50,029 nucleotides of DNA from IMG/VR virus record IMGVR_UViG_3300033067_001279, positions 1 through 50,029 of that record; one strand, 5' to 3'. Shown in pieces: positions 2,607 to 36,348 of the stretch. Below the pieces are notes generated by a model. The model had not been told where the DNA came from and searched no databases. It worked only from the letters and a program-made list of their open reading frames with translations. Each line of letters begins with the position of its first letter. Within the stretch, counting starts at the first letter, position 1. Both the position numbers and the translations under genes were made by a program. This DNA is from a virus (Duplodnaviria; Caudoviricetes).

Positions 2607-2661
2607 TGGTTTTACCTTGCACGGAGGCGAGAAACCTTGCACATTGAGGGCGCAAGAGGAG
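2590..2661 (+). promoter_or_regulatory. Early promoter cassette, copy 2
   Basis: GCCACACCGCG-N6-TGGTTTT-N-CC-TTGCAC-N17-CACATT-N6-GCAAGAGGAG; same spacing as 1004..1075. Confidence 0.75.
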
Positions 2662-2670
2662 TTCCAAAAC

Positions 2671-11611: not shown

Positions 11612-11697
11612 CTGCGACAATCTGCGCAATCGTTTTCCGTTGCTCTGATCACAGTTTTCTAGGCATGCTGTCAGCGCCACAACACGCAAAAGGAGGC
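11612..11697 (+). promoter_or_regulatory. Divergent control region; putative promoter for the recombination operon
   Basis: CGTTTTCCG-TTGCTC-N18-CATGCT resembles the early cassettes (GGTTTTNCC-TTGCA); AAAAGGAGG RBS. Confidence 0.5.
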
Positions 11698-11703
11698 ACA
11701 CGG

Positions 11704-12705: not shown

Positions 12706-12802
12706 CCGTCCGGAGCACTACCGCCCGTCGATCAGTTGGACGTTAAACTAAAGGGGCGTGACAACCGGGAACAGACCGGCACTCAACCACAGGAGAAAAG
12801 CA

Positions 12803-19315: not shown

Positions 19316-19323
19316 GGTGGGCC

Positions 19324-19449
19324 TCACTGGGTTATGACGAGGGTGGCCTCATCGGTGTGTATTTTCTTGACCATGATGGAGGCGGCCACCACCAGGCAGA
19401 AGGTGGCCAGGAAGACCAGCAAGCCAAGGGCGAGTTCTAGGCGAGTCAT
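19324..19449 (-). CDS. 41-aa single-TM protein (below the ORF-track cutoff)
   Basis: MTRLELALGLLVFLATFCLVVAASIMVKKIHTDEATLVITQ; GAGG RBS; ATGA coupling. Confidence 0.55.
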   Translation of the reverse strand: MTRLELALGLLVFLATFCLVVAASIMVKKIHTDEATLVITQ

Positions 19450-20466: not shown

Positions 20467-21267
20467 TCATGGTCCCCATGCGGCGCAGGTCATACGAGCT
20501 GCGCTGGATGATGATAAGGTGGTAGTCAAAGTTGCAGAAGCACTGGACGAAATTCCGGTGACGAGAGCGCCATTGGCTTGCGCGGTGCCGACCGTCTGAT
20601 TGCCGACGAGGGTCGGCGTGCCGACGTTCGAGGTGAACCCGATGGTGGGCGCGGTCGCCGGCGTATATTCCGCGCCCACGATGACGCCGCCAGATGATGC
20701 CGAGAAGGCGCTGGATGCCAGCGAGGTGGTTGAACCACTAGATGCAAAACCTCCGCCGGTCGGCGTAGAGCTAGACGGGTAAACCGAGTAGACGTAGCAG
20801 ACGAAAGCTGTCCCGGCGCCGCTAAGAGTAACAGACACCGTGCCAGACACAGTTGAAGCGTCCGCCAGATAATATGTAGATTGGCCGCCCGCGCTCCCGG
20901 TCTGCGTCGAACCAGATACGGCGGTGGCAGACGTGCCCCCGATAGTGACGGAAGAAACCGTCCTGGTTGTGGAGTTCAGCCAGCAGAAGCAGGCAACAAG
21001 GACGCGCTTGGCGTCAGTGGTGCCGAAGGTGATCGTGCCGGTGGTGTAGGTCGTGGCACCCGTCGAGGAACCGTAGTTGCCGTTGTAGCTGGCCGCGGGC
21101 GTGCCGGCGGCAGCCTTGCCCGGCAGCATGCCCATGGTGAGCGGCATGGCCAGCAGCACCTTCTTGCTCTCGGCCCGGATGATCGCAGGCTTCGGCACGA
21201 CGAGGGCCGGGGTCTGCGGCACCATGAGCGCAGGGATCACGGCGGCGGCGAGGAGCGACTTCATCAT
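20467..21267 (-). CDS. Tail-fibre-associated Ser/Thr/Gly-rich beta protein
   Basis: Coupled downstream of the tail fibre; beta-strand-rich composition. Confidence 0.65.
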   Translation of the reverse strand: MMKSLLAAAVIPALMVPQTPALVVPKPAIIRAESKKVLLAMPLTMGMLPGKAAAGTPAASYNGNYGSSTGATTYTTGTITFGTTDAKRVLVACFCWLNSTTRTVSSVTIGGTSATAVSGSTQTGSAGGQSTYYLADASTVSGTVSVTLSGAGTAFVCYVYSVYPSSSTPTGGGFASSGSTTSLASSAFSASSGGVIVGAEYTPATAPTIGFTSNVGTPTLVGNQTVGTAQANGALVTGISSSASATLTTTLSSSSAARMTCAAWGP

Positions 21268-23180
21268 GCGATGTCACCAATCAATAGCCAAGTGTCGGTC
21301 GCGCGCTTGTAGAGGGTCGCACCCGAATACTGGCCGGTGAGCTTGAACTTGGAGCTCGAGGACTGCAGCGTGATTCCGGTCGTCACCAGCGTCACTTGGG
21401 CCGAGCCGAGCTGGACGATGTCGATCCTCGTTCCGACCGGGAAGGCGACCGAGGCATTGGTCGGGATCGTCAGGTTGACGCTTGCGCCGGTGACATTGAT
21501 CGAGACCAGCTTTCCGGCGTCGGTCAGGGCCAGCGTATAGGCAGCTGTCTGGGCGTTCTCGGCTTCCGTGGCCACCGTCGCCACGACATTGGCCGTCGTT
21601 GCGATCTGGGTCGTGTTCGTGTTGGCGGCCGCGGTGGGCGCAGCGGGCGTGCCGGTGAAGGTGGGGCTGGCCAGCGGCGCATAGGAGCCAAGGTCGGTCT
21701 GGGTGGCAAGCTGGACGGTGGTGCCGTTGAGGCGGGCGAAGACCGCGGCCGTCGTTGTCCAGAAATCGCCGTTGGCCGGGGCCGTAGGAGCAGCGCCATG
21801 GGGAAGGTTGAAACCCGCACCGCCCGCAGCGGACGCCGCAGTGGTGGCCTTGCCGGTGAAGGTGGGCGAGGCAACAGGAGCGCGGGAGGTGTCGGTCGGG
21901 TGAACGTGGTCCTGCCGGGCAAAGCGCGTCGAGGTGCCAACGGTCGCCGTTCCGTCCATGACGGGAGAAGCACTGCCAGCCTGCGCCAGCACAAAGGCGG
22001 TGGTGGCAAGCTGGGTCGTGTTGGTGTCGACCGCAGCGGTGGGCGCCGCCGGGGTGCCGGTGAAGGTGGGCGAGGCAAGGGGTGCGAGCTGCACCGTCGT
22101 GCCGTTGACGCGCCCGAAGAAGCCACCCGTTGTCGACCAGAAATCGCCATTGACCGGCGATGTCGGAGCAGCACCGTGCGGAACATTCAGACCCGCGCCG
22201 CCCGTGGCCGAGGCAACTGTCGTCACGTTTCCGGTGAATGTCGCGCCGGTGAGGTTGGCGTAGGAGTTGGTGTCGACCGCCCACACGCCGCCGCTGCGCC
22301 GCAGGAGGCCGTTCGTCGTGAGAGCGGCAATGGTGTCGAGGTCGGCATCCCACGCCTGCACGGTCGAGCCGATGGCCGCCGAGGTCAGCAGCGCCGAGAG
22401 CAGCGTGCCGCCGTCCGCGATGAGCTTTCCGGTGGCCCCGCTAAAGATCGCCACGCGGCCGTTGACGGCGCCGGCCGGGCCGACGACATCGCCAGTTCCG
22501 GAACCGGCCGCGCCCTGGAGATTGCCCTGGAGGGTCCAGGTCGTGGTGCCGGTCTTTTTGTAATAATCGCTGTTGCTGGTGTTGATATAGAAATCGTTGA
22601 CTGCCCCCAGGCCGCCGGCCGGAGCGCCGGTTCCGGAGTACCAAAGCGAGCCGCTGGTGCCGTTGTTGCCGGCGATGCCCTGGAGATTGCCTTGCAGCGT
22701 CCAGGTCGAAACGCCGGTTTTCTTGTAGTAGTCGCTGTTGGTCGTGTTGATGTAAAAGTCATTGACCGAGCCGAGGCCGCCAGCCGGGGCGCCCGCTCCA
22801 GAAAGCCAGGTCGCGCCGTTGGCGCCGGCGGTGCCCTGGCCGAGGCCGCCGACGATATGCACCTCCGTGCCGTCATAGCGCATCAGGATGTCGAGGCCGA
22901 TCGTGATGTCACCCGAGGCCATCGCCACGCCGCCGGCTTTCTTGAGCGCCTTGGTGCCCGTCACGCCGGAGATCGTGATGGTCATCGGCCCGGTGTTGCC
23001 GGCCGTGGCGCGCCAGCCATAAAACTGGTCGGTATTCCAGTCGGTCTGGGCCGGGTAGGCGGTGCACGTTATGTCGTTGGTGCCGCCCGTTTGGGTGAGG
23101 GCCACGATGGTGGCCACGTCCCCGGAGACGGGGATCCCGGACACCGCGCCGGTGAGCCTATCGGTGATTGTGCTCGACAT
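21264..23180 (-). CDS. Tail fibre protein
   Basis: T/G/A-rich; PLASPTFTGTPAAPT repeats; duplicated GAPAGGLGxVNDFYINT modules; C-terminal YTLALTDAGKL...IPTNASVAFPVGT...WLLIGDI domain. Confidence 0.85.
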   Translation of the reverse strand: MSSTITDRLTGAVSGIPVSGDVATIVALTQTGGTNDITCTAYPAQTDWNTDQFYGWRATAGNTGPMTITISGVTGTKALKKAGGVAMASGDITIGLDILMRYDGTEVHIVGGLGQGTAGANGATWLSGAGAPAGGLGSVNDFYINTTNSDYYKKTGVSTWTLQGNLQGIAGNNGTSGSLWYSGTGAPAGGLGAVNDFYINTSNSDYYKKTGTTTWTLQGNLQGAAGSGTGDVVGPAGAVNGRVAIFSGATGKLIADGGTLLSALLTSAAIGSTVQAWDADLDTIAALTTNGLLRRSGGVWAVDTNSYANLTGATFTGNVTTVASATGGAGLNVPHGAAPTSPVNGDFWSTTGGFFGRVNGTTVQLAPLASPTFTGTPAAPTAAVDTNTTQLATTAFVLAQAGSASPVMDGTATVGTSTRFARQDHVHPTDTSRAPVASPTFTGKATTAASAAGGAGFNLPHGAAPTAPANGDFWTTTAAVFARLNGTTVQLATQTDLGSYAPLASPTFTGTPAAPTAAANTNTTQIATTANVVATVATEAENAQTAAYTLALTDAGKLVSINVTGASVNLTIPTNASVAFPVGTRIDIVQLGSAQVTLVTTGITLQSSSSKFKLTGQYSGATLYKRATDTWLLIGDIA

Positions 23181-23182
23181 GC

Positions 23183-26100
23183 TCAGTCCTCCATCCCGGG
23201 AAGCAGATCGGAGAAATCTGCGTCTGCCCCGTCTTGCAATACCCTACTTTTCACCTCGGGCCAAACCTCCTGCACGGCATGCGCGTTATACACTTTGCGC
23301 TTGTGGTAGCGTGCCAGAAGTTCCTCGCCCAGGGCGGGTGACAGTGTGCCGATATCCTGGATCAATCCGTCAGCATCCATTGGCTTTTTCTGCTCCCAGC
23401 CCTTGATCCCGGTGGTGATCAGGGCGTTGCGCGCCTCGACCATCGAGAGCCGGGCGAGGAGCTCCTGGGCGCCAAGCCGCTGGTCGGGCGTCAGGGTGAT
23501 CTTTTCCGGGTCGTCCTTGGGGCTTTCGATTCGGCTGACATCATTGCCGGCGATCTCCTTGCGGAGGGCGGAAATGGCGGCGATCGCATCCTTGGCCCGG
23601 CGCATCGGGTGGAGGCGTTCCACCTTCGCATCAAAATTGCCGGTGAGTAGGGCATAGGCCTTGAGGTTTTCGTTCTTGCTCTCGAGGAAAGTGTTGGCCG
23701 CCGCGGCGCCCTGGCTGTCGAGAATGTCCTTATAGGTGTTGGCAGTCTGGGCCATGGGCCCGGTCTGCTCGGACATCTGATCCCAGAACTGGCGGCTCGA
23801 GACGGCGCCCGAAGTCGCCTGCTTGATGAACCGCCGGCTCAGGGCATTGGTGGCCGTCTCGAGAACGCCGCGCTCCTGGGCGCGATCGACCGAGGCCGAG
23901 GTGATGATCTGCCCCCAGGACGCACCAAATCCCTGAATGGCGTGGTCGATCATGGCCGGGCTCATGTTGGTGGCATAGCCCATCGCCTTGGCGATCTCTG
24001 AGGTCCGGGCGGTGTACTGGCGCCAGGGCTCAAAGCCGGCGATGTCCTGGCCGACGATCGGCTGCCCGAACGAGTCGACGTTGTGGGCGAGCTCATAGCC
24101 CACCTTGAAGATCGGCACTTCGGTGGGCGGCGCGGTCACGTCATAGAGGCCGGAGACAAAGCTCTCGAGGGCGAGCGGGTTGCGCTTGTATACGGCATCG
24201 AATCCGCGCTCGAACAGGTTGGCCACAAAGCCCAGCTCGAACGGCTTGGGAATGGCCACCCAGTTGCCGGGGCTGAGCTTTACCATCCAGTGCGTGGCGC
24301 GCACATAATCCGAGATCTCCTCATATTCCGGATCATCACGATAGAGGGCGGTGAGGCCGAGGCTAAAGACGCCCATGGCGGTGAGCGCCGTCCAGGCCTT
24401 GGCCGACTTGCCAAGGTTGGCGCGGTCCCTGGCCGAGAGCGGCCGGCCGGCGCGGTGGCTCACGTAAGGGGTGATCGCCTTACGAATGGCGCCCTCCGCG
24501 GTGAGCGTGCGCACCGCCTTGTCGAGGCCCTGGACCGAAGCATTGAGGAAGGTCACCAGGCGCCGCGCGGCGTGGGTCTTCGAGCCATGCCGGCCGAAGT
24601 CGATATAGTCGCGGGCCTGGTAGGCTGCCTCGACGGCCGCCTCGAACGGTGTCAGTCCGTCTTTCTTGGCGCGCTCGAAGCTGTTGCGGAACACCGCCAG
24701 GCGGGTGCCGGTTTCGCTGAGCTCGGTGAGCTCGGCAAAGCCGCGGATCGAGGCGAAGCGGCGCACCGCATAGCCGTTCTTGCGCAGCGCATCGAGGTCG
24801 CGCATCACCCGGCCCTTGTCGAGGGCCGCGACATTGGCGCCGCCCATGATGCCGCCGAACGTGTTGTAGATCTGCGAGATCTCGTGCTGCATGATTTCAT
24901 CGCGGAGGCCGCGGGCGCCCGAGACAAAGGGAATGAAATCCATGCCGGTGAGCACCCAGGCCGACACCTGATCGCGGATGTAGTTGGCCAGGATGAACGG
25001 CGGCGCGGTGGTGATCGAGTAGCGCAGCATGCTCGAGGGCAGCGCCAGCACCGAGGTAAAGAGATCCCGGGACTCCTTGTTCATGCCGGTCATTGAGTCG
25101 TAGAGCTGGCGGCCGAAGTCGCCATCCGCCAGGCGCAGGGCTTGCTTTTTGCCATTGCGCCACACGTAGATGATCGGCTCGCCCTTCTCGTTGATCTCGC
25201 CGGCCTTGAAGACGGTGGCCTTGGCGTTGTCCCCGAGGAGATCGTCCACCAGGGTGGTGAGCGCGTCGATATCGCCGGGGTTGATGCCGGCCTCCTTGCC
25301 GGCGGCGCGGAGCACATCGCCCACGTCGACCGAGCTGCCCTTGAGCTGGGTCGAGGGGATCCGCTCCGCGATGGCGCCGCTCCCAGGGCCCGCCATCTTG
25401 GCGAGATCATCGAGGGCCTTGAACACATCGTTGCGCCGCATCAGCGCATTGAAGTGGTAGGCGTCGGTCATCATGCTTTCGATCGGGTTGATGATCGAAC
25501 GTTTGGACCCCTTGAAGGCCTTCACGATCGAGTTGCGCAACGTGGCATTGGGCTCGCGGCCCACCTCGCGATCAAGGTCCGAAAGGTCGCGCATGAAAGG
25601 CACGTAGTCGGGGCGCTGGATCAGGTCGTCGTAAAGCTCCTGGGTGAGGAATCCGCTCTCGTACTTCTTGCGCAGCATGTTGCGTTGCCACTCGTAGACC
25701 ATATCGGCGGCCTCGGTGAACTCCGGGTGTGCCAGCTCGAGCTCGGCAATCGCCGTCTGATAATCGCCCTTGGTGAACTTGCCAGGGGTGTTGGGGATCT
25801 CGCCGGCCAGGAAGCGATCATACTCGCGCACCGCGCGGCGTGAGATCAGGTAGGAGGCGAAGTCAGCCACGCGGCGATCGTCCCAGGAGGTCCAGCTATC
25901 GCCCAGGGCTTTCTCGAGGGCGTCGGACAGGCCAGGGCCTTCCGGCGTCACGCCATGATAGGGGACCACGCCATGCACCAGGTCGATGTGGCCGGCCGAG
26001 TAAGAGTCCTGGAGCAGGCGCGCCAGGCGGTAAGGATCCTGGGCGGAGGTGATGTCGAGGGCCCGACCGGTGCGCTTCTCGTAGATCTTGGCGAGCTCAT

Positions 26101-29100
26101 CCACCGCCTTATTGATCGGGTTCAGCTTGTCGAGCAGCGAGGTGTAGGCCGTCGAGGCATAGGTGGCGATCGTGGCGCGGACGCCGTTTGCCTGGGCTTC
26201 CTTGATGAGCTCGACGGCCGCCGAGTTGCGACGGCTCGAGACGACATCGCCGGCAATCGCCGCCTGCGACGGCGCCGTGACGTGCTGGCGGTAGGCCTCG
26301 GCAATCGCCTGGATGCTGGCGAGCTGCTCGGGGGCCTTGGTCCGGAGCATGTCCTCGAATGCCTTGGTGAACTGCGGCGCGGAGTTGCGGGCATAGGCCG
26401 GCGTGGTCACATAGAAACGGAACCACTCGGCAAAGCCTTCCGAGAGCTGTTGCTTGGGATCCGCACCCGCATAGGCGAGCGGCTCGAGCTCCTTGGCATG
26501 CGCCAGCTTGATGGTGTTCAGCGAGCGGCCCCACTGGGTTTCCATCGAGTGGGCGGTTTCGTGGGTCTGCGTCTCGAAGTCCGACACCTCGCGGAGGCGG
26601 ATCACACCTTGGCCGCGGTCATACTGGCCGGCGATGCGGCCGCCACCCTTGGGGGCCCTGGCAAGTCGGCCCTGGCGGACGGGCGCGCCGGTGAGCTTCT
26701 GGAGCTCGGCGCTGATGTCCTCGAGGCGGGGTGCCAGCTCCGGCGTAGCCTGGCCGGCAACCTGGACCGTGCCGGCCTGGGGCCGGTTGGTCGGCATGGT
26801 GGACTGTTGCGGCCGCCGGGCGAGGGCTATTCCTTCGGTGGGGTTACCCCCGTCTTGGCGAACAGCTCCTTGAACATCTTGTCCGTCGAGCGGTTTTCGA
26901 TCTCCTCCAAATCCAGAAAGCCCTTCGAGGGCGCCGGTGTCGTCGGTGACTTGAGGGGGATCTCCGGGGCGGCCGTTTGCGTCGATTTCGGCATAGCGAT
27001 CTGCAACTCCTTCTTGTCTGAGAACTCGGTAAGTCTCGGCCGGTGAAACGCCAACAGCCTTGACATATTCCGGGTTGATGATCCGCCCGGTCTTGATAAA
27101 TCGCCCGATCATGCGGCGGAACGCATTGTCGTAAGTCACCGCAATATTGATCAGGTCGACCTTGTAGCCGAAGGCCTGGAGGTTCTTGACCAGCTTGCGG
27201 ATCCCATCGGGGTTATGGCCCACCTTCGGGACCACGATGTTCGAGCCATCCGTGAGCATCCGCGCCAAGACGGCGTTCGCCATGTCGGCGCTTTCCTCAT
27301 GGACCGCATTGGCCCCGATGCCGCCATGGAACTCCGGAATTACCTTCTTGGCTTCATCGGGATCGACAATGGCCGCATAGCGATCGGCTGCGAAGCGATC
27401 TGCAAAGGTCGATTTGCCGGCAGCGGGCGGGCCCAGGACAATGGTAGCGCGGCGCTCATGCTTGACCGGGCCCTTGGTGGAGAAGGCGTTTGCCCCTTCA
27501 ACCAACCGATCAATGGCAGGATCGAAGCCATGGACCGGACCATCCGGGAAGTCATATACGCGGGACTGCTTCCACGCATCAGACATGAAGCCTGGTTGTT
27601 CATTCGTCAAGGGGATTGCGTCAAGGCGCCGCACCGCGTCTTGCACAAAGGGGTGCGCGGCGATTTCGTCAATCGGCGCACCATTGGCGAGCATGTCGGG
27701 CAGCCCGGTGCCGATCGCGTCGGTCTTGAACGCAAAGCCCTTTTGATCGGCCTCGGATCCGAACAAGCCGACATCCATGCCCTTTTGCGGCCGCTTGGCG
27801 CGGAGCGGCGCCTCGGCCCGGCGCTCGGCCAGGCTCTTGTTGGAGATCTGCTCCGCCCCGGGAATGACCATCTGCGGCTTGTTGTCGGCGCCCGGCTCGA
27901 GGATCGGGGCCTTTGGCTGGCTCATCAGGGTTTCGCGGCCCTTGTCGGTCAGGAAATAGCGAGTCACGCGATTGCCGGTCGCGGTGTAGCTTTCGCGGCC
28001 CTCGATCCAGCCCATGCGGGTGGCTTGGTTGATCTGGTCTCCAAGGATGTTATTCGGCGCGCCCAACTTGCCGCTCGCCAGTGAAAGGAGACGTTCCATT
28101 TGGGGCGTCATGGCAGGCGCCGCGGGGGCGCCCGGCTCATAAGTCGGACCGTTCACCTCGGCCTGGAACGCCGGATCTTTCTGGAGGGTGCTCGAGATCT
28201 GCTGACTGCGGGTCGCCCCTTCGGCCGGCTTGCCATAGAGCGCCGAACGCAGAATGTTGCCATCGGCCGCCACATAGGGCGGATCTATGCCCTCCTCGGC
28301 CAGGATCTTGAGGCGGCCCTCGATCTTGCTGTCCGCGACGGCGCCAAGGAAATGGATCCGGGTCGGCTTGGCCTCTTTCACGAACGCCCGGAACTCCTCC
28401 GCGCTGATGGCCTTTTCGTTGGAGGGGATCCCCGCGATGAAATCCGTCCCGAGAATGTTGCGCGCCTCGGCATAGGCCTGGGCGAGCGTCTTCTCGCCCT
28501 TCTGGAGCGGTACGATGAGGTTTTCAGCGAACGGGCGGAGATCGTCCGCATGCTGACGGAGGAGCGCGAGGGAAGCGGCCTGGTCGCCAATGATGTCGGG
28601 GGCCACGAAGACCGGCGGCGGATAGCTGTCCTCGGCCTGGTTGGCGTCCATGATGGCCAGGCGCAGCTCGTTGTATTTGTCGAGCACCGCCTGGAAATCC
28701 ATGTCCTTGAGCTGCGGCGGCGCGGCACCCTCGGCCCGGAACATATCGCCCAGGTCCGTGAGATAGCGGCCTTGCTCGCGCATGTTGCGGCGGAACAGGC
28801 CGAAAGCCCCGGAGTCGACGAACACCCGGGCATGCCAGTCGAGGATCCGCTGGGCCAGGCGCGGAATGTTGGCGTCCGAAAGCTCCTGCACGTCGATGCC
28901 AATGCCGCGCGTGTCAATGCCGCCGAAGGTGTGGGCGCCGGCCTCGAAGTCATTCAGCCGCGACATGCCGGAGGCGAAGCGCACGGCGCGCTCCTTGAGC
29001 TGGCGCACCTGGCCGTCGACGCCCTGGGGAACGGTCGGCTTGACGCCGTTGGATCGCACCAGGGTGGCGAGCTCGCTCCGGGATCCGTCCATGTGGCCGG

Positions 29101-32100
29101 TGGCGTTGCCCTGGGCGTCGAGGTGGGTGACCTGGTAGAGGCTCGGATCTCGCAGCGATTGCGTGACGATGATCGTCCGGCCGTCCTCGGTCTTACCCTC
29201 GAATGCGCCGGTGCGCTCGATCGCGCTCTCGATGTCGGCCTGGAAGGCGGCCATTTCCTGCCGGCGCTGGCGGATCTGCTCCTGAAAGGCCTTCATGCGC
29301 TCGGTGGTCGCCGGCGGCGGCATCACGTCGAACAGGCTGGGGCCCTTGTCAACCGGCGGCCGGCGGGCAAAGGCGATGTTGGGCTCGGTCGGATCCCAGG
29401 TGCCGCGGTTGTTGACGCTCTTGATCTGGGTAGGATCGAACGCGACAACCTCGCTGGGAAGGCGATGTGTGTAATTCTTGTTGAACACATCGCCAGCAAA
29501 GATGCCGTCATATCCGAGCTTCCGCACCTCCGGGATTATGTTCTTGCGAAACTCATCCAGAAGCGTGCTGCCATGGAGCCCGCCGTGCGAATCCCAGGCT
29601 GCGGCGTCCTCGCCGCGCACGGCGGTTTCCTCTGCGAACAGATCATTTTGGAGCTCCAAGGCGGTCTTGCCGCCTGTGATCCGCTTCATCACCTCATCGA
29701 CTTGCGGCGCGATGTGGTTTTGATAGAGCTCCTTGGGGGCCATGCCGGGATGTTCTTTTTCGGCAATTGCCTTGAAGTGAGCCTTCAATGCCGTCGCGAA
29801 ATTTTCGACAATCTCATCCGGCTGAGAGGTTTTCCCATGGATCCAAAGAGGATTTTGGATGCTGACGTAGAGCTCCATGGTGTTCGCGGCGGTGCCACCA
29901 CGTTGCAGGGAATAGGCATCAGCAAGGTATCGCTGCGGCGTCAAGTAGAATCCATCGGCTCCGAAAAATCCCTTGTCGAACCGCTTTCCTGCACCCTGCT
30001 TAAACTCGGTGAAGGCAGTCGGGCCGGTGCCGTGATAGATCACCAGCGGGTCGCCGTTCTCGTCCACCAGCTTGGAATGACCGAACCACCGCTTGAAGGC
30101 CGGTGAGTCGGTGGGGCCAGCGTCCGTCAGTCTTGCGGCGATCCCCGTTTCGTCCGGGCGTCCAACTGGGCCAGGGCGACCCCCGTCCGGACCAATTGTC
30201 TTGCTCGCTGTGCGGAGCTCGTCGAGAAAATCTCGGACAACGGCCGGACGGGAGTCTCCGTCTTTAAGCCGCTTGGCGGCAGCGGCGAGGGCGTCGGCAA
30301 TGGGGCCTTTGCGGCGGGCTTGGGCTTGGAGGGTGGCGAGGATCGCGGCATCTTGGGTTGCCCTTTCTGCATTGGTTGCGGTGGCCAGAGTGTTGCCGGC
30401 GCCGGTAAGGCGGGCCTCCTCCTTGACCAGGGTGGCGAAGGCGGCGCGGTCCTTGCGGATGGCGGTCGCCGCGGCGCTCAAGACCTGGGCGCGCTCCTTG
30501 AAAAGGATCTGCGTCACCTCGGCCGAGCCGAACATGTCCTCCATGGTCGATTGCACGGCCGGCGCGTCGAGCGCATCGCGGATCATGCTCTCGGCCTCGA
30601 TGGCATTGTCCGGCTGTTCCTTGGCCAGGAGATCGAGGAGCTGGGCGTGGGTCTTTGGATCCGGCGCCAGGCGGCCCACCTGGGCAGCGTAGCCGGCCGG
30701 AACTTTCTTGTTGATAACCATCCCGAAGGCGTCATCAGACAGGTTGGCGAGGCCCTGGGCATCGCGCACCAGGGCGGAGGTCGGCGGCAGATCAACCGCC
30801 ATATCCGGCCGCGAGCGGAGGATCTTGGCCGCGTCGATGGCGTTGCCGGTGCCTTCCGCGATGTTCTTGGCCGCGGCGATGGCGCGCGCATCCTCTGAGG
30901 TGACGCCATCGGCTTCCCGGAGGACCACGGCGCGGATCTTCGGCTCCTGGCCTTCCTTCTCGAGGCGCGAGGCCAGGCCATGGCGCTGGTGGCCATCGGC
31001 AATATAGAAATCGCCCTTCAGATCCTCCCACACCAGCGTGACGCCGGACTTGATCGGATCCCATTTCTTCACGCCCTTGAGGCGATCGGTAACCCCGGCC
31101 TCGTCGCCACCTTCCTTGAACTGGAAGCGCTTGGCGTCAACCTTGAGATCCGAGGGGTTGAACTGGCGCTCGGTGCGATCGACCGGCAGCGGCGCGGGCG
31201 GGGGCTCGACGGCGGCGGGTGGGGTCTGCTCGGCGCCGGGCAGCGGGGCAACACGTTGCGCGGACTTCTTGGCGATCGCGTCGGCCCGCGCGCGGAGATC
31301 CGCCGCATAGGCCAGTTCCTCGGCTTTGCGGCGCTCGAGATCAGCCTTGATCGTCTCATATTTCGGGCTGTCCTTCGAGACGCCGGGCTCGGTTCCCGTA
31401 GCCTCGGCATTGCGCTGGGCGCGGGTGGCAATATAGTCCGCCAGATCGGCGCGCCCATACATCTCGGCGGCGGCCATACCCTCGACGGTCGATCGGTTTC
31501 CGGCAGCATGGATTGGCGCGACAACCGCATCGCGGATTGCCTGCTCGATCCCGCCCACATTAGAGCGGTTGCCATTGGCGGCCACGGCTGCATCCGCTTC
31601 GGCGCGGAGCTTCTCCTCGAGGGCGGCGAACTGTGTCGGCGCCGTGCCCTGCTGCACCACGAAATCGCCCACAGGGTTGCCGGGCAGCGGAGCGGCGGGG
31701 CCGCGCTCCCTCGAGATCTGCGCGGTGAGATCCTCGGCTTTCCCGCCGGTGATGCCCGGCACGAAACCGCGCTTCGGCTTCACAATGCCGATCGAGGCCA
31801 TGGGGTCGGCCGAGTCCTCGAAGGCCTTCACCTCCGGGCTGTTGATGCCGAATTGATCGACGGCCTGGGCGAGCGCGTCGGCGTGGGTATCGCCCACAAA
31901 GAACTTGCCGCCGATCTGCACGGCCGGCTTGCTCTCGCTGCCCCTGAATTTCGAGGGGTCGATCGAGAGATCCGGCTTGACCGGCTCGACGGGCGGCGTC
32001 TCATTGGTGAGGCCGCCCTGGGTTTCGGTCGGCGCCTGGGGGATCTCGCCGGGCTTGTTGGCGTTGAGGTAGTCGTCGACCTTGGCGATCTGCTCGGGCG

Positions 32101-33031
32101 TCATTTCCCGAATGCCGACCACCTCACCGAACAGCGCCTCTTGGGCGGTGTTGAGGTCGCCCGGGCTATGGGTGGCCAGGAGATATTCAGGAGTTGGCGG
32201 TGCCAGGCCTTCGGGAGCAGGCGGCGGCGGTTCAGCGGCGGGCGGGGCAGCCGCTTCCGGCGGCGGCGTGGGGCCAGGCTGCGGCGGCGGGCCGGCCGGC
32301 GTGCGCTCGGCGTGGCGGGCCTCCTCACGTGCAGCGCGGCCCTCGAGGTAGCCGAACGGCATGCCGAAGCCAAAGCCGGCAGCGGCATCGGTGGCCAGGG
32401 ATCCCCAGTCGACCGAATCACGCAGGCCGGAGCCCCACTCCTCGGCCTGGACGATCGCGTTGATACTGGCATTCATCGCCGCATTCGACACGCTCGAGTC
32501 AAGGAGCCGCGAGAACATCGGGTAGGCCATGCGCCATCCGGCCGTGCCGATCTCGGCCGCCGGGTTGAGCAGCGAGGCCGGATCTGCCAGGGCGCCGGCC
32601 ACCGAGCCCAGGATGGCGGCGGAATAATCGGCCGCCGAGCTCGAGGGTTTCATGGCGTCATATTGCGCTTGACGTTCCTGGCGCCGCGAAATCATCAGAT
32701 CCGCCGTGGCTTTGCCGGCCTCGGAGCCAATGCCCTGGCCGTTCACATAGCCTTGCTTGGCGCTCTGAATATCCTTGAGCTCGTCGACGCCCGGCGTTCC
32801 GAAATCCTGGGCGGCGTTGAAGTGCTGAACAAATCGCTCCTTCCAGGAGGTGTCGGCCTGCTCCATGCGCTGGGCCGGCTTGCGATCGGGCGCCTGGATA
32901 TACTGATCGAACGGGTTGGCCGGGGCCTGCGGCGTCACCTGGACGCCCATTTCCGGCTGATAGGGCGGCGGCTTGATGTCCTCCGCATCCGCGGGAGCCG
33001 GGGCGATCGCTGAGCCGGGCATGGTAACCAT
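23183..33031 (-). CDS. Giant polyvalent internal virion/ejection protein (~3,280 aa)
   Basis: Third internal-virion gene after tail tubular B; ATG 33031 overlaps the upstream TAA, AGGAG RBS. Domains by motif: ParB-like (YIADGHQR, ~30400-31170); ART (YHGT/GFYLT/EVVAFDPTQIKS, ~29375-30110); TGT/DpdA-like (VFVDSGAF/PDIIGD/IHFLG, ~28235-28985); wHTH (~27930-28110); zeta-like kinase (GPPAAGKST, ~26980-27460); HETAH metallopeptidase (~26280-26720); LPD38-like (IPKPFELG, ~23850-24400). Confidence 0.9.
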   Translation of the reverse strand: MVTMPGSAIAPAPADAEDIKPPPYQPEMGVQVTPQAPANPFDQYIQAPDRKPAQRMEQADTSWKERFVQHFNAAQDFGTPGVDELKDIQSAKQGYVNGQGIGSEAGKATADLMISRRQERQAQYDAMKPSSSAADYSAAILGSVAGALADPASLLNPAAEIGTAGWRMAYPMFSRLLDSSVSNAAMNASINAIVQAEEWGSGLRDSVDWGSLATDAAAGFGFGMPFGYLEGRAAREEARHAERTPAGPPPQPGPTPPPEAAAPPAAEPPPPAPEGLAPPTPEYLLATHSPGDLNTAQEALFGEVVGIREMTPEQIAKVDDYLNANKPGEIPQAPTETQGGLTNETPPVEPVKPDLSIDPSKFRGSESKPAVQIGGKFFVGDTHADALAQAVDQFGINSPEVKAFEDSADPMASIGIVKPKRGFVPGITGGKAEDLTAQISRERGPAAPLPGNPVGDFVVQQGTAPTQFAALEEKLRAEADAAVAANGNRSNVGGIEQAIRDAVVAPIHAAGNRSTVEGMAAAEMYGRADLADYIATRAQRNAEATGTEPGVSKDSPKYETIKADLERRKAEELAYAADLRARADAIAKKSAQRVAPLPGAEQTPPAAVEPPPAPLPVDRTERQFNPSDLKVDAKRFQFKEGGDEAGVTDRLKGVKKWDPIKSGVTLVWEDLKGDFYIADGHQRHGLASRLEKEGQEPKIRAVVLREADGVTSEDARAIAAAKNIAEGTGNAIDAAKILRSRPDMAVDLPPTSALVRDAQGLANLSDDAFGMVINKKVPAGYAAQVGRLAPDPKTHAQLLDLLAKEQPDNAIEAESMIRDALDAPAVQSTMEDMFGSAEVTQILFKERAQVLSAAATAIRKDRAAFATLVKEEARLTGAGNTLATATNAERATQDAAILATLQAQARRKGPIADALAAAAKRLKDGDSRPAVVRDFLDELRTASKTIGPDGGRPGPVGRPDETGIAARLTDAGPTDSPAFKRWFGHSKLVDENGDPLVIYHGTGPTAFTEFKQGAGKRFDKGFFGADGFYLTPQRYLADAYSLQRGGTAANTMELYVSIQNPLWIHGKTSQPDEIVENFATALKAHFKAIAEKEHPGMAPKELYQNHIAPQVDEVMKRITGGKTALELQNDLFAEETAVRGEDAAAWDSHGGLHGSTLLDEFRKNIIPEVRKLGYDGIFAGDVFNKNYTHRLPSEVVAFDPTQIKSVNNRGTWDPTEPNIAFARRPPVDKGPSLFDVMPPPATTERMKAFQEQIRQRRQEMAAFQADIESAIERTGAFEGKTEDGRTIIVTQSLRDPSLYQVTHLDAQGNATGHMDGSRSELATLVRSNGVKPTVPQGVDGQVRQLKERAVRFASGMSRLNDFEAGAHTFGGIDTRGIGIDVQELSDANIPRLAQRILDWHARVFVDSGAFGLFRRNMREQGRYLTDLGDMFRAEGAAPPQLKDMDFQAVLDKYNELRLAIMDANQAEDSYPPPVFVAPDIIGDQAASLALLRQHADDLRPFAENLIVPLQKGEKTLAQAYAEARNILGTDFIAGIPSNEKAISAEEFRAFVKEAKPTRIHFLGAVADSKIEGRLKILAEEGIDPPYVAADGNILRSALYGKPAEGATRSQQISSTLQKDPAFQAEVNGPTYEPGAPAAPAMTPQMERLLSLASGKLGAPNNILGDQINQATRMGWIEGRESYTATGNRVTRYFLTDKGRETLMSQPKAPILEPGADNKPQMVIPGAEQISNKSLAERRAEAPLRAKRPQKGMDVGLFGSEADQKGFAFKTDAIGTGLPDMLANGAPIDEIAAHPFVQDAVRRLDAIPLTNEQPGFMSDAWKQSRVYDFPDGPVHGFDPAIDRLVEGANAFSTKGPVKHERRATIVLGPPAAGKSTFADRFAADRYAAIVDPDEAKKVIPEFHGGIGANAVHEESADMANAVLARMLTDGSNIVVPKVGHNPDGIRKLVKNLQAFGYKVDLINIAVTYDNAFRRMIGRFIKTGRIINPEYVKAVGVSPAETYRVLRQEGVADRYAEIDANGRPGDPPQVTDDTGALEGLSGFGGDRKPLDGQDVQGAVRQDGGNPTEGIALARRPQQSTMPTNRPQAGTVQVAGQATPELAPRLEDISAELQKLTGAPVRQGRLARAPKGGGRIAGQYDRGQGVIRLREVSDFETQTHETAHSMETQWGRSLNTIKLAHAKELEPLAYAGADPKQQLSEGFAEWFRFYVTTPAYARNSAPQFTKAFEDMLRTKAPEQLASIQAIAEAYRQHVTAPSQAAIAGDVVSSRRNSAAVELIKEAQANGVRATIATYASTAYTSLLDKLNPINKAVDELAKIYEKRTGRALDITSAQDPYRLARLLQDSYSAGHIDLVHGVVPYHGVTPEGPGLSDALEKALGDSWTSWDDRRVADFASYLISRRAVREYDRFLAGEIPNTPGKFTKGDYQTAIAELELAHPEFTEAADMVYEWQRNMLRKKYESGFLTQELYDDLIQRPDYVPFMRDLSDLDREVGREPNATLRNSIVKAFKGSKRSIINPIESMMTDAYHFNALMRRNDVFKALDDLAKMAGPGSGAIAERIPSTQLKGSSVDVGDVLRAAGKEAGINPGDIDALTTLVDDLLGDNAKATVFKAGEINEKGEPIIYVWRNGKKQALRLADGDFGRQLYDSMTGMNKESRDLFTSVLALPSSMLRYSITTAPPFILANYIRDQVSAWVLTGMDFIPFVSGARGLRDEIMQHEISQIYNTFGGIMGGANVAALDKGRVMRDLDALRKNGYAVRRFASIRGFAELTELSETGTRLAVFRNSFERAKKDGLTPFEAAVEAAYQARDYIDFGRHGSKTHAARRLVTFLNASVQGLDKAVRTLTAEGAIRKAITPYVSHRAGRPLSARDRANLGKSAKAWTALTAMGVFSLGLTALYRDDPEYEEISDYVRATHWMVKLSPGNWVAIPKPFELGFVANLFERGFDAVYKRNPLALESFVSGLYDVTAPPTEVPIFKVGYELAHNVDSFGQPIVGQDIAGFEPWRQYTARTSEIAKAMGYATNMSPAMIDHAIQGFGASWGQIITSASVDRAQERGVLETATNALSRRFIKQATSGAVSSRQFWDQMSEQTGPMAQTANTYKDILDSQGAAAANTFLESKNENLKAYALLTGNFDAKVERLHPMRRAKDAIAAISALRKEIAGNDVSRIESPKDDPEKITLTPDQRLGAQELLARLSMVEARNALITTGIKGWEQKKPMDADGLIQDIGTLSPALGEELLARYHKRKVYNAHAVQEVWPEVKSRVLQDGADADFSDLLPGMED
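26827..26994 (-). CDS. Nested out-of-frame 55-aa gene at the end of the zeta-like kinase domain
   Basis: AAGGAG 12 nt before ATG 26994; MPKSTQTAAPEIPLKSPTTPAPSKGFLDLEEIENRSTDKMFKELFAKTGVTPPKE with G/C-ending codons while the host frame switches to A/T-ending codons. Confidence 0.65.
   Translation of the reverse strand: MPKSTQTAAPEIPLKSPTTPAPSKGFLDLEEIENRSTDKMFKELFAKTGVTPPKE
30127..30351 (-). CDS. Nested out-of-frame 74-aa gene at the end of the ParB-like domain
   Basis: AAAGGG 9 nt before ATG 30351; MPRSSPPSKPKPAAKAP...RPLSEIFSTSSAQRARQLVRTGVALAQLDARTKRGSPQD; host frame uses atypical codons here (AGG, CAA, CTT, AAA, CGA, TTT, AGA). Confidence 0.55.
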   Translation of the reverse strand: MPRSSPPSKPKPAAKAPLPTPSPLPPSGLKTETPVRPLSEIFSTSSAQRARQLVRTGVALAQLDARTKRGSPQD

Positions 33032-35445
33032 TACTGCACTCCTGCGGGGGTCTTGGGGAGCCATTTCTCAGCCTCGCCGGTGCCAAATCGCTGGTCGAAG
33101 GCATCGGCCAGGGAGGGATTGGCGATGAGAGCGCGGACGGAAGCCTCGTCAACGAACGGCCAGCCACCCGGCGGCGGGCGGAGTTTCATCGGCACGGACA
33201 TGGTTCCGCTCCGGATCGGCGGAACGCGGGCAGGCTGGGCCGGGCGCTGGGGCTGGGCAGGCGCGGCGGGGGCGGCCGCGGGGGTAGTAGCGGCCGGGGG
33301 CAACTCGCCGTTCATGGCCTTCTCTGCGGTGCTGGCCTCGACGGCGTGCTCGAGGCCCTGGGTTTCGGCCACGGTCGGCGTGATGCCCTGGGCGGTCTTG
33401 CGGATAATGCCGGCGGTGATGTCTCCAACCTGCTTATCCCGGACCGATTCCGAAATGGCGAAGGCGAGCACCTGTTGCGCATAGGGCCCATAGATCTCGT
33501 CGACGTGGTTGATGGTGTCGCGCACCGCCGTCTCGGTGGCCTGGCGAATGGCCTTGCGGGCGGCCTGGCGCTCCTCGGGGGTCTTGGCCTTCGACATCGC
33601 CATGACCAGGCGGGCATCCGATTCGTCGATGATCTTCTCCACCGGCTTGATGATCTCGCGGGCATCGGTGCGGGTGATCGGCTGCTGGATGCCGTCCGGG
33701 ATCCCCACTTCGGCCTGGGCGGCGAGGCGCGCCTTGATCAAGGCCTGGATGCTGTCCGGCTTGGTCGGGTCATAGGTTTCCTTGGCCTTCTTGACGATGG
33801 GCGAGTCCTCGACCGACTTGGCCGGATCCTTGAGGCGGAGATCCTGGAGCTGGTTGGCGCGCTTTTCGGCCGCGTCATAGATCTCTTGTTGGCTCGAGAA
33901 GTCCGTCGCGCCGGCCGCCGGCTTGAGGGTCTTGAGGTGCTCCTCGATCTGGTCGTTGTTCATCGTCTCCATGGCGGTCACCGCGCCATAGGTGGCCACC
34001 GCGGTCTTGCGCTTCTCGAGCCACTTGGCCGCGTCATCCTCGCCCAGAGTGTTGATGATCGTCTGGGGATCCAGCTTGGTGCCCTGGCCGGTCGCCTTGA
34101 TCTGGGCAATGTCGTCGTCCATGGCGGATTTGACGTTGTAGCGATCGAGCGCTGTGGTTTCGCGCTGCTGTTTCTGGCGCTGGGCGATCTCGCTATCCGC
34201 GTTTGTCTGGAGGGCGAGTCGATCGGTGCCGTCGAGCACCTTGTAATAATCCGGCTGGTTGAGGCTGGCGATCTGGTCGCCGCCGCCAGCGATGATGTCG
34301 GCCTCCTCGTTGCGCCGGCGGGCGTTGATCCCGCCGTTGTCCTTCGAGAGGCCGCGCACCGCTTCCGAGATCTGCGCGATGTCGCCGCTCTTGATGGCAT
34401 TCACCACGCGGCCAGGCAGAGAGCCGTAGTTGTAAGCTACCGAAGTCAGGGCCGCCTTGGCAGCCGGCGGCAGCGAGGCCCAGGGGCCAGGGCCAACGTC
34501 CTGGACAATGCCGGACTGAAATTCACCAATGCGGCGCTGGAGGTCGCGCTCGGCATCGGCGCGCGTCACGGTCATGCCGGGCTTGACCGGGATCACCTGT
34601 CCATCCGCGGTGGTGATGGTGTCGGATCCGAAGCCAACCCGATATTTGTCCTTGTCGAAATAGGCGGTGGTGCGAAAGCCCTCTTGCTTGCGGATCAGGC
34701 CCTCGACGCCGCCCTGTCCACCCTCGAGCCAGGCGGCCGCGGCATTGGGGTCGTTCTGGATGTCCTGATCAATTCTCAGCTTGGCGTATTTCTGGGCCAG
34801 GCCGCGGCGCAGCTCGACGCCCTTGGCCGGGTCAATGACGCCGGTGGCAACCATGTTGTCGATGTTCGCCCGCGCCTGGCCCAGGATCTTGTCGGCGGTC
34901 TTCGGGTCCGTGCCAGGGGCGGCGGCCGCGCTGATCGAGTCGTCGAGGCCATTGATTGCGGTGGTGACGCGGAGATCCTTGTCGATGCCCTGGGCGCGGT
35001 TCTGGATGGTGAGGGCGCCCTGGGTTACATCGTCCTGGGTTTCAGCCTCGAAGCGGGCCCGGAGCGACGGCGAGCGGATCAGCGATGCGGAGGCCTGGCG
35101 GTGCTTCTCGATGTTGCCCTGGAAGGTCTTCCCCCAGTTGGCATAATCGGGGTTGTTCTCGAGCTGGTACTGGTTTTCCTCGGTGAGCCGGCGCTTGTTC
35201 CAATCGGTGCGGGCGCGGGTGAGGTCGAGGGCATCCCCCTGTTCCTTCTGGCGGATGTCGATCTGCCGCTGGTTGTCGATGTTCGCCTGGTTTTCCTGGG
35301 TGATCGTCTCGCCCATCCTGGCCACCGCACCGCCCAGGGCACGGCTGGCCTCGCCCACCATGTCCTGCTGCTGGCGCGGGATGGCCTGGGATTGCGGGAG
35401 GTTCATGCCGAGGCTGTCGGCGGTGGGCATCCTCGGCATGATCAA
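33031..35445 (-). CDS. Internal virion/ejection protein with a GH24 lysozyme domain
   Basis: LIRKQEGFRTTAYFD...VGFGS...VTRADAERDL...ALTSVAYNYG...NARRRNEEA within a helical protein. Confidence 0.85.
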   Translation of the reverse strand: MIMPRMPTADSLGMNLPQSQAIPRQQQDMVGEASRALGGAVARMGETITQENQANIDNQRQIDIRQKEQGDALDLTRARTDWNKRRLTEENQYQLENNPDYANWGKTFQGNIEKHRQASASLIRSPSLRARFEAETQDDVTQGALTIQNRAQGIDKDLRVTTAINGLDDSISAAAAPGTDPKTADKILGQARANIDNMVATGVIDPAKGVELRRGLAQKYAKLRIDQDIQNDPNAAAAWLEGGQGGVEGLIRKQEGFRTTAYFDKDKYRVGFGSDTITTADGQVIPVKPGMTVTRADAERDLQRRIGEFQSGIVQDVGPGPWASLPPAAKAALTSVAYNYGSLPGRVVNAIKSGDIAQISEAVRGLSKDNGGINARRRNEEADIIAGGGDQIASLNQPDYYKVLDGTDRLALQTNADSEIAQRQKQQRETTALDRYNVKSAMDDDIAQIKATGQGTKLDPQTIINTLGEDDAAKWLEKRKTAVATYGAVTAMETMNNDQIEEHLKTLKPAAGATDFSSQQEIYDAAEKRANQLQDLRLKDPAKSVEDSPIVKKAKETYDPTKPDSIQALIKARLAAQAEVGIPDGIQQPITRTDAREIIKPVEKIIDESDARLVMAMSKAKTPEERQAARKAIRQATETAVRDTINHVDEIYGPYAQQVLAFAISESVRDKQVGDITAGIIRKTAQGITPTVAETQGLEHAVEASTAEKAMNGELPPAATTPAAAPAAPAQPQRPAQPARVPPIRSGTMSVPMKLRPPPGGWPFVDEASVRALIANPSLADAFDQRFGTGEAEKWLPKTPAGVQ

Positions 35446-35990
35446 GCTCCCATGGTGTAGTCGTAGGCGTTCTTGGCGCGCGCCGCTTTCGAGAAGTCGG
35501 AATAGATCGAGCCGCCGGTGCTGAGCAGCGTCGTGCCGGCGCCGATATAGCCGGCAAGCCTGGCGTTCTGGCCGGCGATCTTGGTCTGGCCGGCCTCGGC
35601 GTAGAGATCATGACGGGCCTGGGTGCCGTTGTAGAGATCTGTCAGGGCGTTGTATTCGCCTCGGCGCTCGATCCCGGACATGATGTCGGTCACCGTGTCG
35701 CCGGTGCCGCCGCCGGAAGCCGCCGCCACCGCCATGGTGCGGCCCAGGGCAGCGCGCTTCTGCTGGCGGTCCTCGATGGCCTTGCGCTGGGCGATGGCAA
35801 GTTCCTGGTCGCCCTTGGTCTTCATCGCCTTGGCCTGGGCGTCGGCATAATTAGCCTGTTGGATGCCGCCGATCACCTGGCCGCCGGCCGAGGCCAATCC
35901 TCCCGCCACCGTCAGGGCCGTGCCGATCGTCCCGGCGTTCGCTGCCATGAAGGCGCCGATTCCGCCGATCGCTGCTAGGATGGGTGCCAT
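35442..35990 (-). CDS. Small internal virion/ejection protein (T7 gp14-like position)
   Basis: G/A-rich hydrophobic ends flanking a Q/A-rich helix. Confidence 0.75.
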   Translation of the reverse strand: MAPILAAIGGIGAFMAANAGTIGTALTVAGGLASAGGQVIGGIQQANYADAQAKAMKTKGDQELAIAQRKAIEDRQQKRAALGRTMAVAAASGGGTGDTVTDIMSGIERRGEYNALTDLYNGTQARHDLYAEAGQTKIAGQNARLAGYIGAGTTLLSTGGSIYSDFSKAARAKNAYDYTMGA

Positions 35991-36348
35991 AGCTATAGAC
36001 CCTTTCGCCGCCGATGAGTTCATTCGTGGGGGAAAAGCCCAGCCGCTCCAGCCACCGCCCCGCCCCGTTTTCGTGTGTCGACTCTATCGCATACAACTCA
36101 CCCAATTGCGAGACGCCCACCTCCACCAACCTCTGGGCGGTCCGGTGCATGAACACCGGAAATCGCCTCAGCGTCTCGGTGATCTCGAGGCTCAGGAACG
36201 GCCGGCCGTTCACCCCGATGACGATCGCCGCGGCGCCGATCTCCTGGCCCTCGAGCTCGGCCACCACGCCGGCGAAGCGCGGCACGATGTAGCGCGAGAA
36301 TTTCACCATGTCGCGGGCCCGCATGAGGCGGAGCTTAGGCGCGCTCAT
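35851..36348 (-). CDS. GNAT-like virion assembly protein (T7 gp13-like position)
   Basis: AGRWLERLGF motif; follows tail tubular B; C-terminus reads ~46 codons into the next gene. Confidence 0.65.
   Translation of the reverse strand: MSAPKLRLMRARDMVKFSRYIVPRFAGVVAELEGQEIGAAAIVIGVNGRPFLSLEITETLRRFPVFMHRTAQRLVEVGVSQLGELYAIESTHENGAGRWLERLGFSPTNELIGGERVYSYGTHPSSDRRNRRLHGSERRDDRHGPDGGGRIGLGRRPGDRRHPTG

Follow-up and report, generated by a model that had tools for sequence, protein, structure and literature searches.

An LPD38-class polyvalent protein at the gp16-type position of a tailed phage genome: conserved core, exchangeable enzyme cassettes, and fused and split relatives

The viral contig IMGVR_UViG_3300033067_001279 (Caudoviricetes), whose 50,029 bases were analysed in full and are referred to here as the window, is estimated to be 95% complete and encodes a giant multi-domain protein on its minus strand (Table 1). 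An initial annotation of this DNA had placed the gene at 23183-33031, said that it fills a fifth of the genome, and described its product as an injected chain of ParB-like, ADP-ribosyltransferase (ART), TGT-like, winged helix-turn-helix (wHTH), zeta-like kinase, HExxH peptidase and LPD38-like domains. The open reading frame (ORF) as such spans 23183..33064 and would yield 3293 residues (P0001); its first ATG falls within the last part of the preceding gene. The next ATG, at 33031, follows an AGGAG 7 nucleotides upstream and overlaps the TAA stop of the upstream gene (TAATG), the BLAST alignments of relatives begin at residue 12, and a database copy (P0002) is identical to P0001 from residue 12. 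These observations show that the coordinates first proposed are right, and the 9849 bases of the gene amount to 19.7% of the contig. Residue numbers follow P0001 throughout, the real protein being P0001 minus 11.

G+C content is highest at the third codon position in 59 of 64 stretches of 100 codons along the frame, which indicates that the giant frame is coding throughout. The small nested genes that had been suspected inside it find no support, as 38 of the 39 ORFs of at least 60 residues in other frames show the high second-position G+C typical of shadow frames. The exception, a 79-residue ORF on the minus strand (26827-27066) whose G+C at codon positions 2 and 3 is like that of a gene, lacks a Pfam match and is probably a chance frame; it overlaps a Gly/Asp/Pro-rich linker where the third-position G+C (GC3) of the main frame falls to 0.55. 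The gene had no match among GenBank phages in a megablast search, and a phmmer search of the whole protein against PDB recovered a zeta toxin alone (E 0.69).

Table 1. Features of the giant gene and its immediate neighbours
Feature	Residues	Coordinates	Strand	Remarks
Whole gene, LPD38-class large polyvalent protein in gp16-type slot		23183..33031	minus	3282 aa; stop 23183-23185
N-terminal conserved region	12-455	31700..33031	minus	28-55% identity in 19/20 closest relatives
ParB_N-like module (weakly supported)	625-985	30110..31192	minus	ADGHQRH 689, KNIAEG 733; phrog_10691 and phrog_21 matches
ART-PolyVal ADP-ribosyltransferase domain with insert	1001-1219	29408..30064	minus	PF18760, E 6.9e-19, 69.4 bits (cut-off 31.2)
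TGT/DpdA-like TIM barrel (predicted)	1349-1643	28136..29020	minus	SGMSR 1365, DSGAF 1417, PDIIGDQ 1489, ADGN 1600
Small conserved module, candidate wHTH of the initial annotation	1720-1779	27728..27907	minus	43-78% identity in 18/20 closest relatives
Zeta-toxin-like P-loop kinase	1872-2025	26990..27451	minus	PF06414, E 3.7e-14, 53.1 bits (cut-off 22.3)
Conserved core	2077-3293	23186..26836	minus	zincin, unknown-fold region, LPD38 and C-terminal region; standalone gene in relatives
Zincin-like metallopeptidase domain (predicted)	2110-2260	26285..26737	minus	HETAH 2168-2172, EGFAE 2209-2213
LPD38 domain	2911-3059	23888..24334	minus	PF18857, E 2.4e-30, 106.4 bits (cut-off 27)
Upstream neighbour, internal-virion-type protein		33031..35445	minus	804 aa; Phage_lysozyme domain, aa 253-380
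phrog_418 'internal virion protein'		35442..36023	minus	193 aa; PHROG match
Downstream neighbour, tail fibre		21264..23180	minus	638 aa; ATG 2 nt beyond the stop of the giant gene

The giant gene belongs to a minus-strand head-and-tail operon extending from about 48.5 kb to 18 kb, in the order small and large terminase, portal, major head protein, tail tubular proteins A and B, the phrog_418 protein, the 804-residue lysozyme protein, the giant gene and the tail fibre. As this is the T7-type gene order, the giant gene occupies the gp16 position. The large ejection-protein slot claimed for it is thus confirmed by the operon order, which is repeated in a related locus (L005); homologues of the 804-residue upstream protein are found at the equivalent position both there and in a second related locus (L006).

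Three of the seven domains originally named, the ART domain of the ART-PolyVal family, the zeta-like kinase and LPD38, score over their Pfam curated cut-offs. In the ART domain the motifs YHGT (1010), GFYLT (1038) and AFDPT (1208) were assigned by eye to the His-Tyr-Asp triad, and the kinase has its Walker A motif, GPPAAGKS, at 1878. A scan with NCBIfam gave a weak XopAJ/AvrRxo1-type zeta match alone (E 0.002, far under cut-off), and Pfam at E<=10 on seven fragments of the giant protein returned LPD38 alone. The HExxH, TGT-like, ParB-like and wHTH regions have no Pfam, NCBIfam or PDB sequence matches. Taking in the structural models of the HExxH and TGT-like regions discussed below, five of the seven named domains hold up. 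GC3 is 0.733 in the ART domain and 0.665 in the zeta region (residues 1791-2062), while the other modules range over 0.77-0.89 and seven structural genes over 0.83-0.87. These low values fit a later arrival of the two domains from a source of lower G+C, or different constraints.

The ParB-like module, among the most widespread pieces of the protein, is part of a family with 2908 representative clusters at E<=1e-3 (1168 at E<=1e-30), for which no covering Pfam model was found. Among 144 newly listed representatives (P0116-P0259; median 956 residues, 59 of them at most 900 residues long) the module mostly begins about 300-400 residues in, and some of these proteins also carry zeta or ART domains. 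Its assignment to ParB is weakly supported. Pfam scans of 34 homologues (10 + 24) detected no ParB family, the profile of the module had no match in PDB, PF02195 was absent from all six frames of the window at E<=10, and hhalign against seven ddrB-ParB (PF18763) domains gave a probability of 0.1%. By contrast, hhalign against a profile of three phage ParB_N sequences aligned 113 columns in register (E 0.00096, probability 22%), with ADGHQR opposite the GxRR box and KNIAEG opposite ENxxRE. Its score of 28.2 was reached by none of 22 controls (20 column-shuffled profiles, one reversed and one unrelated; 9.5-19.1). The DGHQR motif also resembles the DGQQR/DGHHR motifs of the ParB/Srx NTPases. These sequence comparisons point, if weakly, to a ParB_N-like module. 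The small module proposed as a wHTH has no match in Pfam or in a phmmer search of PDB. The conserved N-terminal region, which includes a Pro/Ala-rich linker (approximately residues 241-300), likewise has none in Pfam or PHROG.

A whole-length search recovered 66 proteins at E<=0.001, of which the 20 closest are P0003-P0022 and 36 (P0003-P0038) were compared. The core is present in 34 of these 36. Among the 20 closest relatives, BLAST detects the N-terminal region in 19, the ParB-like module in all 20 and the small module in 18, and precomputed Pfam assignments place ART in 15 and zeta in seven. The barrel is seen in one of them (P0022) and in two distant proteins. The junction between the small module and the core, compared in 18 relatives, holds a zeta-type cassette in seven, another, unannotated cassette of about 255-290 residues in ten, and a gap of 15 residues in one. 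Carriers of the alternative cassette (P0005-P0007 and P0014-P0020) have it at the position equivalent to 26885-27740 of the window. Other domains encountered in the relatives are GNAT, PBECR1, InPase, ddrB-ParB, SNF2 helicase, methylase and SLT, and in P0053 ddrB-ParB, ART, zeta and LPD38 follow one another in the order of the modules described here. Comparison of domain content among related phages thus supports, at the level of sequence, a fixed scaffold with enzyme cassettes that are exchanged at fixed junctions and vary between relatives. The accretion of cassettes that the initial annotation had envisaged captures part of this picture. Exchangeable cassettes are indeed seen, but close relatives encode the same parts as two separate genes, which means that fusion and fission both occur.

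The fused form, a single polypeptide that includes both the core and the ParB-like module, is found in 19 relatives (P0003-P0021, 2276-3214 residues). P0003 aligns continuously over the junction (query 1644-3291, 76.8% identity), and L005 has a single 2547-residue frame in the same operon order. The split form is exemplified by L006 (2719-13639), where an N-part of 1447 residues (ART and GNAT) and a core of 1277 residues (64% identical) are separated by six small ORFs, and where the N terminus of the fibre and the internal virion proteins upstream are in place. One of the intervening ORFs is like the podophage GP4 fibre protein gp80, and another has a CarboxypepD_reg-like domain. Core-only proteins of 1267-1284 residues reach 79% identity across 100% of the core, and the best fused relative 77%. 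A tblastn search with residues 2250-3293 matched 52 GenBank phage records, including those of Vibrio phage VvAW1 (a 10.9-kb gene annotated 'DarB-like antirestriction'), Planktothrix phage Pag-Yong1 ('large polyvalent protein') and PTXU04. Given that the core stands alone in relatives, and that L006 is split where L005 is fused, the giant protein is best seen as two virion-module genes that were joined, with cassettes inserted into the first.

Taken together, these observations suggest, with a probability that we put at roughly three in four, that the gene encodes an LPD38-class polyvalent protein in a gp16-type slot, which has a conserved core and a cassette-bearing N-part and would be packaged and ejected with the DNA. 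The architecture, the synteny, the pattern of conservation, the exchange of cassettes and the coexistence of fused and split forms are read directly from the genomes compared. The last ~1,200 residues are the conserved structural core, which is the part most likely needed for head packaging and ejection. The first ~2,060 form a second conserved unit (the N-terminal region and the ParB_N-like module) bearing exchangeable cassettes, namely ART-PolyVal, the DpdA/TGT-like barrel, the small conserved module and the zeta-type P-loop kinase. Once packaged, the protein is predicted to exit the capsid together with the DNA, and its enzymes would then target host proteins, nucleotides and nucleic acids at the very start of infection; the zincin domain might process the giant protein or a partner.

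Polyvalent proteins were defined by Iyer, Burroughs, Anand, de Souza and Aravind (2017; PMC5512222), together with ART-PolyVal (placed in the H-Y-D clade), ddrB-ParB, the phage-only LPD38 and the idea of processing by MPTase domains; delivery with the DNA and peptidase processing were already proposed there. Like the LPD38 proteins of that study, the present one is encoded among late or structural genes and joins numerous unrelated enzyme domains in a single chain; ART-PolyVal, LPD38, a zincin-like HExxH domain and a module of ParB type are common to both (PMC5512222). It differs in that its HExxH domain has no Pfam model match, its ParB-like module is not ddrB-ParB and its barrel is not named as 'TGT' in the main text of that paper (PMC5512222). 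Its membership of an established class is borne out by LPD38 above the cut-off, by the unrelated activities of the ART, zeta kinase, predicted zincin fold and predicted TIM barrel, and by the late-gene location.

Several characterized or annotated proteins provide further points of comparison. The phi24B protein gp47 (2811 residues; LPD5, LPD1, LPD38 and a MuF-C metallopeptidase) was detected in virions by proteomics and proposed to be an ejection protein (2026 preprint, bioRxiv 10.64898/2026.04.10.717836). It is likened to our protein by description, as a giant LPD38 protein of a short-tailed phage with different cargo domains (bioRxiv 10.64898/2026.04.10.717836), and neither the organism names nor the best 40 of the 52 core tblastn matches included phi24B. 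Another LPD38 protein, PTXU04_00025, is required for efficient infection (2023 preprint, bioRxiv 10.1101/2023.09.18.558157). In Pelagibacter phage HTVC034P, gp44 (1229 residues, 'hypothetical protein') is homologous to residues ~2310-3070 (24% identity, E 1e-35) and lies in the same slot, past the internal virion proteins and ahead of the tail fibre; it differs in consisting of the core only, without enzyme cargo. Vibrio phage VvAW1 gp01 shares the core (25% identity, E 5e-24) and, with P1 DarB/DdrB, represents giant head-associated proteins of the anti-restriction type, in which the cargo is a methylase and a helicase instead of the ART, barrel and kinase found here. Synteny thus places an LPD38 polyvalent protein in a gp16-type slot, and its scaffold can be told apart from its exchangeable cargo. 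The fused, split and core-only forms, together with the zeta or alternative cassette at one junction, make up a natural series in which the needs of packaging and ejection, and the contribution of each enzyme against host defences, can be tested. Two large families without Pfam models also emerge, namely the ParB_N-like module and the DpdA/TGT-like barrel, which is common in giant phage proteins. The natural fused and split series and the barrel as cargo of a giant virion protein appear to be the points most worth following.

The HExxH region was aligned (fragment 2077-2420) with 32 full-length relatives of 21-78% identity, and H2168, E2169, H2172 and E2209 are invariant in all 33 sequences. 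An AlphaFold2 model of the fragment has a mean predicted local distance difference test (pLDDT) score of 79, with residues 31-190 mostly above 90, and shows a helix, three strands, the HExxH helix and a helix bearing the glutamate. The nearest neighbours in VIA-align are zincins, such as 1yqy_A (Z 7.8, root mean square deviation (rmsd) 6.8, 147 aligned), 4fxq_A (6.9, 4.0, 137), 6fpc_A (6.7, 4.1, 127) and 8sln_A (6.1, 3.4, 89). No peptidase family, such as MPTase-PolyVal, matched the domain in Pfam at E<=10. On the invariant motif and the topology of the model, the best reading of the region is a zincin-like peptidase, as had been supposed from its sequence.

A zincin of this kind may process the giant protein or a partner, and the release of individual domains by a built-in peptidase, also suggested for this protein in the initial annotation, is a hypothesis already published by Iyer et al. 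(2017; PMC5512222). The distribution of the motif bears on it. Of 40 shorter relatives, 30 have HExxH at the corresponding position, and four of the remaining ten are fragments stopping short of it. The domain lies near the N terminus in all nine complete core-only proteins (1190-1284 residues; P0260-P0266, P0270 and P0271), none of which has fused cargo, and in L006 HETAH lies at residue 153 of the core gene, the cargo part being a gene of its own. As all nine core-only proteins keep the motif, cutting off fused cargo cannot be the sole role of the domain. It may not release cargo at all, and instead act on the envelope (e.g. on peptidoglycan peptides) or on host proteins, or mature the core. 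The authors of the phi24B study suggest peptidoglycan degradation by the metallopeptidase of their protein (bioRxiv 10.64898/2026.04.10.717836), and action on host proteins is among the options of Iyer et al. (2017; PMC5512222). Yet a cargo protein could be cut in trans in the split genomes, the structures that resemble the domain are those of protein or peptide endopeptidases and of DNA-damage-response proteases, with no cell-wall enzymes among them, and a wall lysozyme domain is already present on the upstream 804-residue protein. On balance we consider a role other than release to be a serious candidate that falls a little short of even odds. Cutting in trans, self-maturation and activity against substrates in the host or envelope are all candidate roles.

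Several points weigh against an ejected, gp16-type protein with a peptidase in its core. With T7 gp16 (alongside gp14 and gp15) the giant protein has in common its gene position, its large size and the fact that one internal protein has a muralytic domain; in this phage the bearer is the gp15-slot protein, and such swaps are described in other phages (PMC8954989). It differs in its cytoplasm-directed enzymes and in the lack of detectable sequence similarity, no PHROG or Pfam match to T7 gp16-type families being found. At 3282 residues it is ~2.5 times as long as the largest gp16-like protein in the range of 609-1337 residues given in a 2022 review (PMC8954989). A crude Kyte-Doolittle scan found no 19-residue stretch with a mean hydropathy of at least 1.4, and hence no clear membrane-spanning helix of the sort expected of a gp16-like inner-membrane part. 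The structural scores of the zincin are middling (best Z 7.8), and a Foldseek search of PDB returned no row at E<=0.001 for its model, although most top rows were zincins. Moreover, six of the 40 shorter relatives appear full-length and have no HExxH domain, their homology beginning at about residues 2260-2310, and the motif is likewise missing from HTVC034P gp44; the domain is therefore not universal in the core. Finally, the protein is known here from genes alone, and its packaging and ejection with the DNA would follow from synteny and by analogy with the phi24B preprint (bioRxiv 10.64898/2026.04.10.717836).

The remaining large cassette was first described as TGT-like. Its model is a (beta/alpha)8 barrel with a pLDDT of 87.5 and a predicted template modelling score (pTM) of 0.87. 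In VIA-align searches of ~48,000 chains the archaeosine TGT 1iq8_A ranks first (Z 13.6, rmsd 4.5, 237 aligned), the bacterial TGT 3unt_A third (13.0, 4.2, 238), the DNA preQ0 insertase DpdA 7ui4_A fourth (12.6, 4.0, 226) and Cap10 9ntn_B sixth (12.1, 4.5, 224). Class II aldolases are interleaved with these chains (3pm6_B, 13.4, 3.8, 223; 6ofu_A, 12.6, 4.0, 221), so that the structural scores are tied. The best match in the BFVD library of viral structures is an 'ART-PolyVal-like domain-containing protein' (E 4.3e-12), and queuine tRNA-ribosyltransferases account for six of the named rows in the top 50. Sequence profiles align VFVDSGAF with VDSGSFQ of 1iq8, weakly (E 1.9), and no Pfam TGT or DpdA match was obtained for the barrel fragment at E<=10. 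The confident model therefore supports a predicted TIM barrel nearest to TGT and DpdA though tied with aldolases, and upholds the TGT-like label to that extent.

Residues 1340-1650 are matched by 48 shorter proteins, all of them lacking a Pfam family there. An alignment of the query with 31 of the 48, all of standalone size (260-417 residues), comprises 32 sequences in which DSGAF and the P and D of PDxxGDQ are invariant, while most of SGMSR and the DAN triplet are conserved in at least 90%. D1417 and D1490 are invariant and D1601 is conserved in at least 90%, all three lying at or just past strand ends in the model. In DpdA, Asp95, Asp130 and Asp256 are invariant across DpdA and TGT, and Phe99 stacks on the base (PMC10164549). 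The spacing of D1417 and F1421 equals that of Asp95 and Phe99 (PMC10164549), and the barrel aspartates would accordingly be equivalents of the DpdA/TGT triad. The likeness to DpdA and TGT (PDB 7ui4, 1iq8 and 3unt) thus consists of a TIM barrel, the DSGxF spacing and two further invariant Asp at or after strands; the differences are the lack of a Pfam match, the tie with class II aldolases, and an embedding in a virion-type giant protein of a phage without QueC.

Relatives of the barrel are encoded at 76 viral loci, by ORFs of at least 800 residues in 40 (several of which run off the locus), of 450-799 residues in 12 and of fewer than 450 in 24. When eight of the large ORFs were scanned, three were found to end in LPD38, one has ART and PAPS-reductase domains, one an SNF2 helicase, and the other three are without a Pfam match. 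A 1909-residue phage ORF in L066 (3343-9072) combines ART-PolyVal, a DpdA/TGT-like barrel and a PAPS-reductase-type domain. The neighbours of 11 standalone barrel genes are replication and DNA-modification genes, e.g. radical-SAM, QueC and Mom in L053 (5998-10508), Mom and a C5 methylase in L065, and guanylate kinase, ThyX and DarA_C in L047. QueC was found in two of 50 records searched, L053 and L037, both of which have a standalone barrel gene within ~1.2 kb of it (~1.1 kb in L037); it thus adjoins the barrel gene in two of 18 standalone records. It was found neither in the window nor in the 31 records with the barrel embedded in a large ORF. PF23859 (DpdA) had no match in five records with standalone barrel genes, including the QueC-bearing L053. 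The standalone barrel genes near QueC in L053 and L037 are candidates for an unrecognised DpdA-type family. As standalone members occur amid QueC, Mom and DNA-modification genes, the barrel family is likely to include DpdA analogues.

One could go further and see the barrel as an injected DpdA-like base-exchange enzyme, from an unnamed family that recurs as cargo of giant virion proteins. Such an enzyme would swap bases in the incoming phage DNA, in host DNA or in tRNA before phage genes are expressed, using host-made 7-deazaguanine precursors or another base. We regard this as rather unlikely. A literature search, with supplements outside its scope, found no paper joining polyvalent proteins with DpdA or TGT-like domains; 'TGT' has no occurrence in the main text of Iyer et al. 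(2017; PMC5512222), the supplement of which may list the barrel under another name. If true, an injected barrel would represent a new route of restriction evasion, and otherwise the gene is an ordinary though large member of its class.

The neighbourhoods of the standalone barrel genes (QueC, radical SAM, Mom, C5 methylase and ThyX) also lend themselves to a different explanation, in which the giant protein is not injected but expressed late, as an anti-defence or DNA-modifying protein of the producing cell that might, for instance, modify progeny DNA before packaging. We hold this to be quite improbable, given that the giant gene is translationally coupled within the tail and internal-virion-protein operon, that a core homologue occupies the same slot in a minimal pelagiphage, and that an LPD38 protein was found in phi24B virions (bioRxiv 10.64898/2026.04.10.717836). 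Still less credible is an assembly or sequencing artefact fusing two real genes, the N-part and the core: split forms in close relatives (L006; P0260-P0266) and the unusual composition of the linker junction at residues 2001-2100 (GC3 0.55-0.72, position 1 at 0.78-0.80) would speak for it, but the 19 fused relatives (P0003-P0021), the unbroken alignment of P0003 and the single frame of L005 stand against it.

Outside its tail module the phage is not T7-like, as no polymerase was found among the ORFs scanned. A search of genome contigs for a host or prophage recovered no relative, and the sole hint of a host is that named relatives derive from Maricaulis, Brevundimonas and Microvirga. The rest of the genome encodes RecT, an exonuclease, a RuvC-like resolvase, an HNH endonuclease, three DNA methyltransferases and repressor-like proteins. 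The exonuclease VIII-like (PDDEXK) gene and RecT form a recombination pair on the plus strand (11665-13705), with the resolvase and the HNH endonuclease nearby. A 179-residue CHAP-domain protein on the minus strand (18788-19327; PHROG match 'baseplate hub subunit and tail lysozyme') provides another muralytic activity in addition to the lysozyme domain of the 804-residue protein. The three DNA methyltransferase genes lie on the minus strand in the early region (4812-5972, 7958-8977 and 9088-9693; PHROG E 2e-78, 1.2e-47 and 1.3e-39) and are a second anti-restriction layer beside the giant protein.

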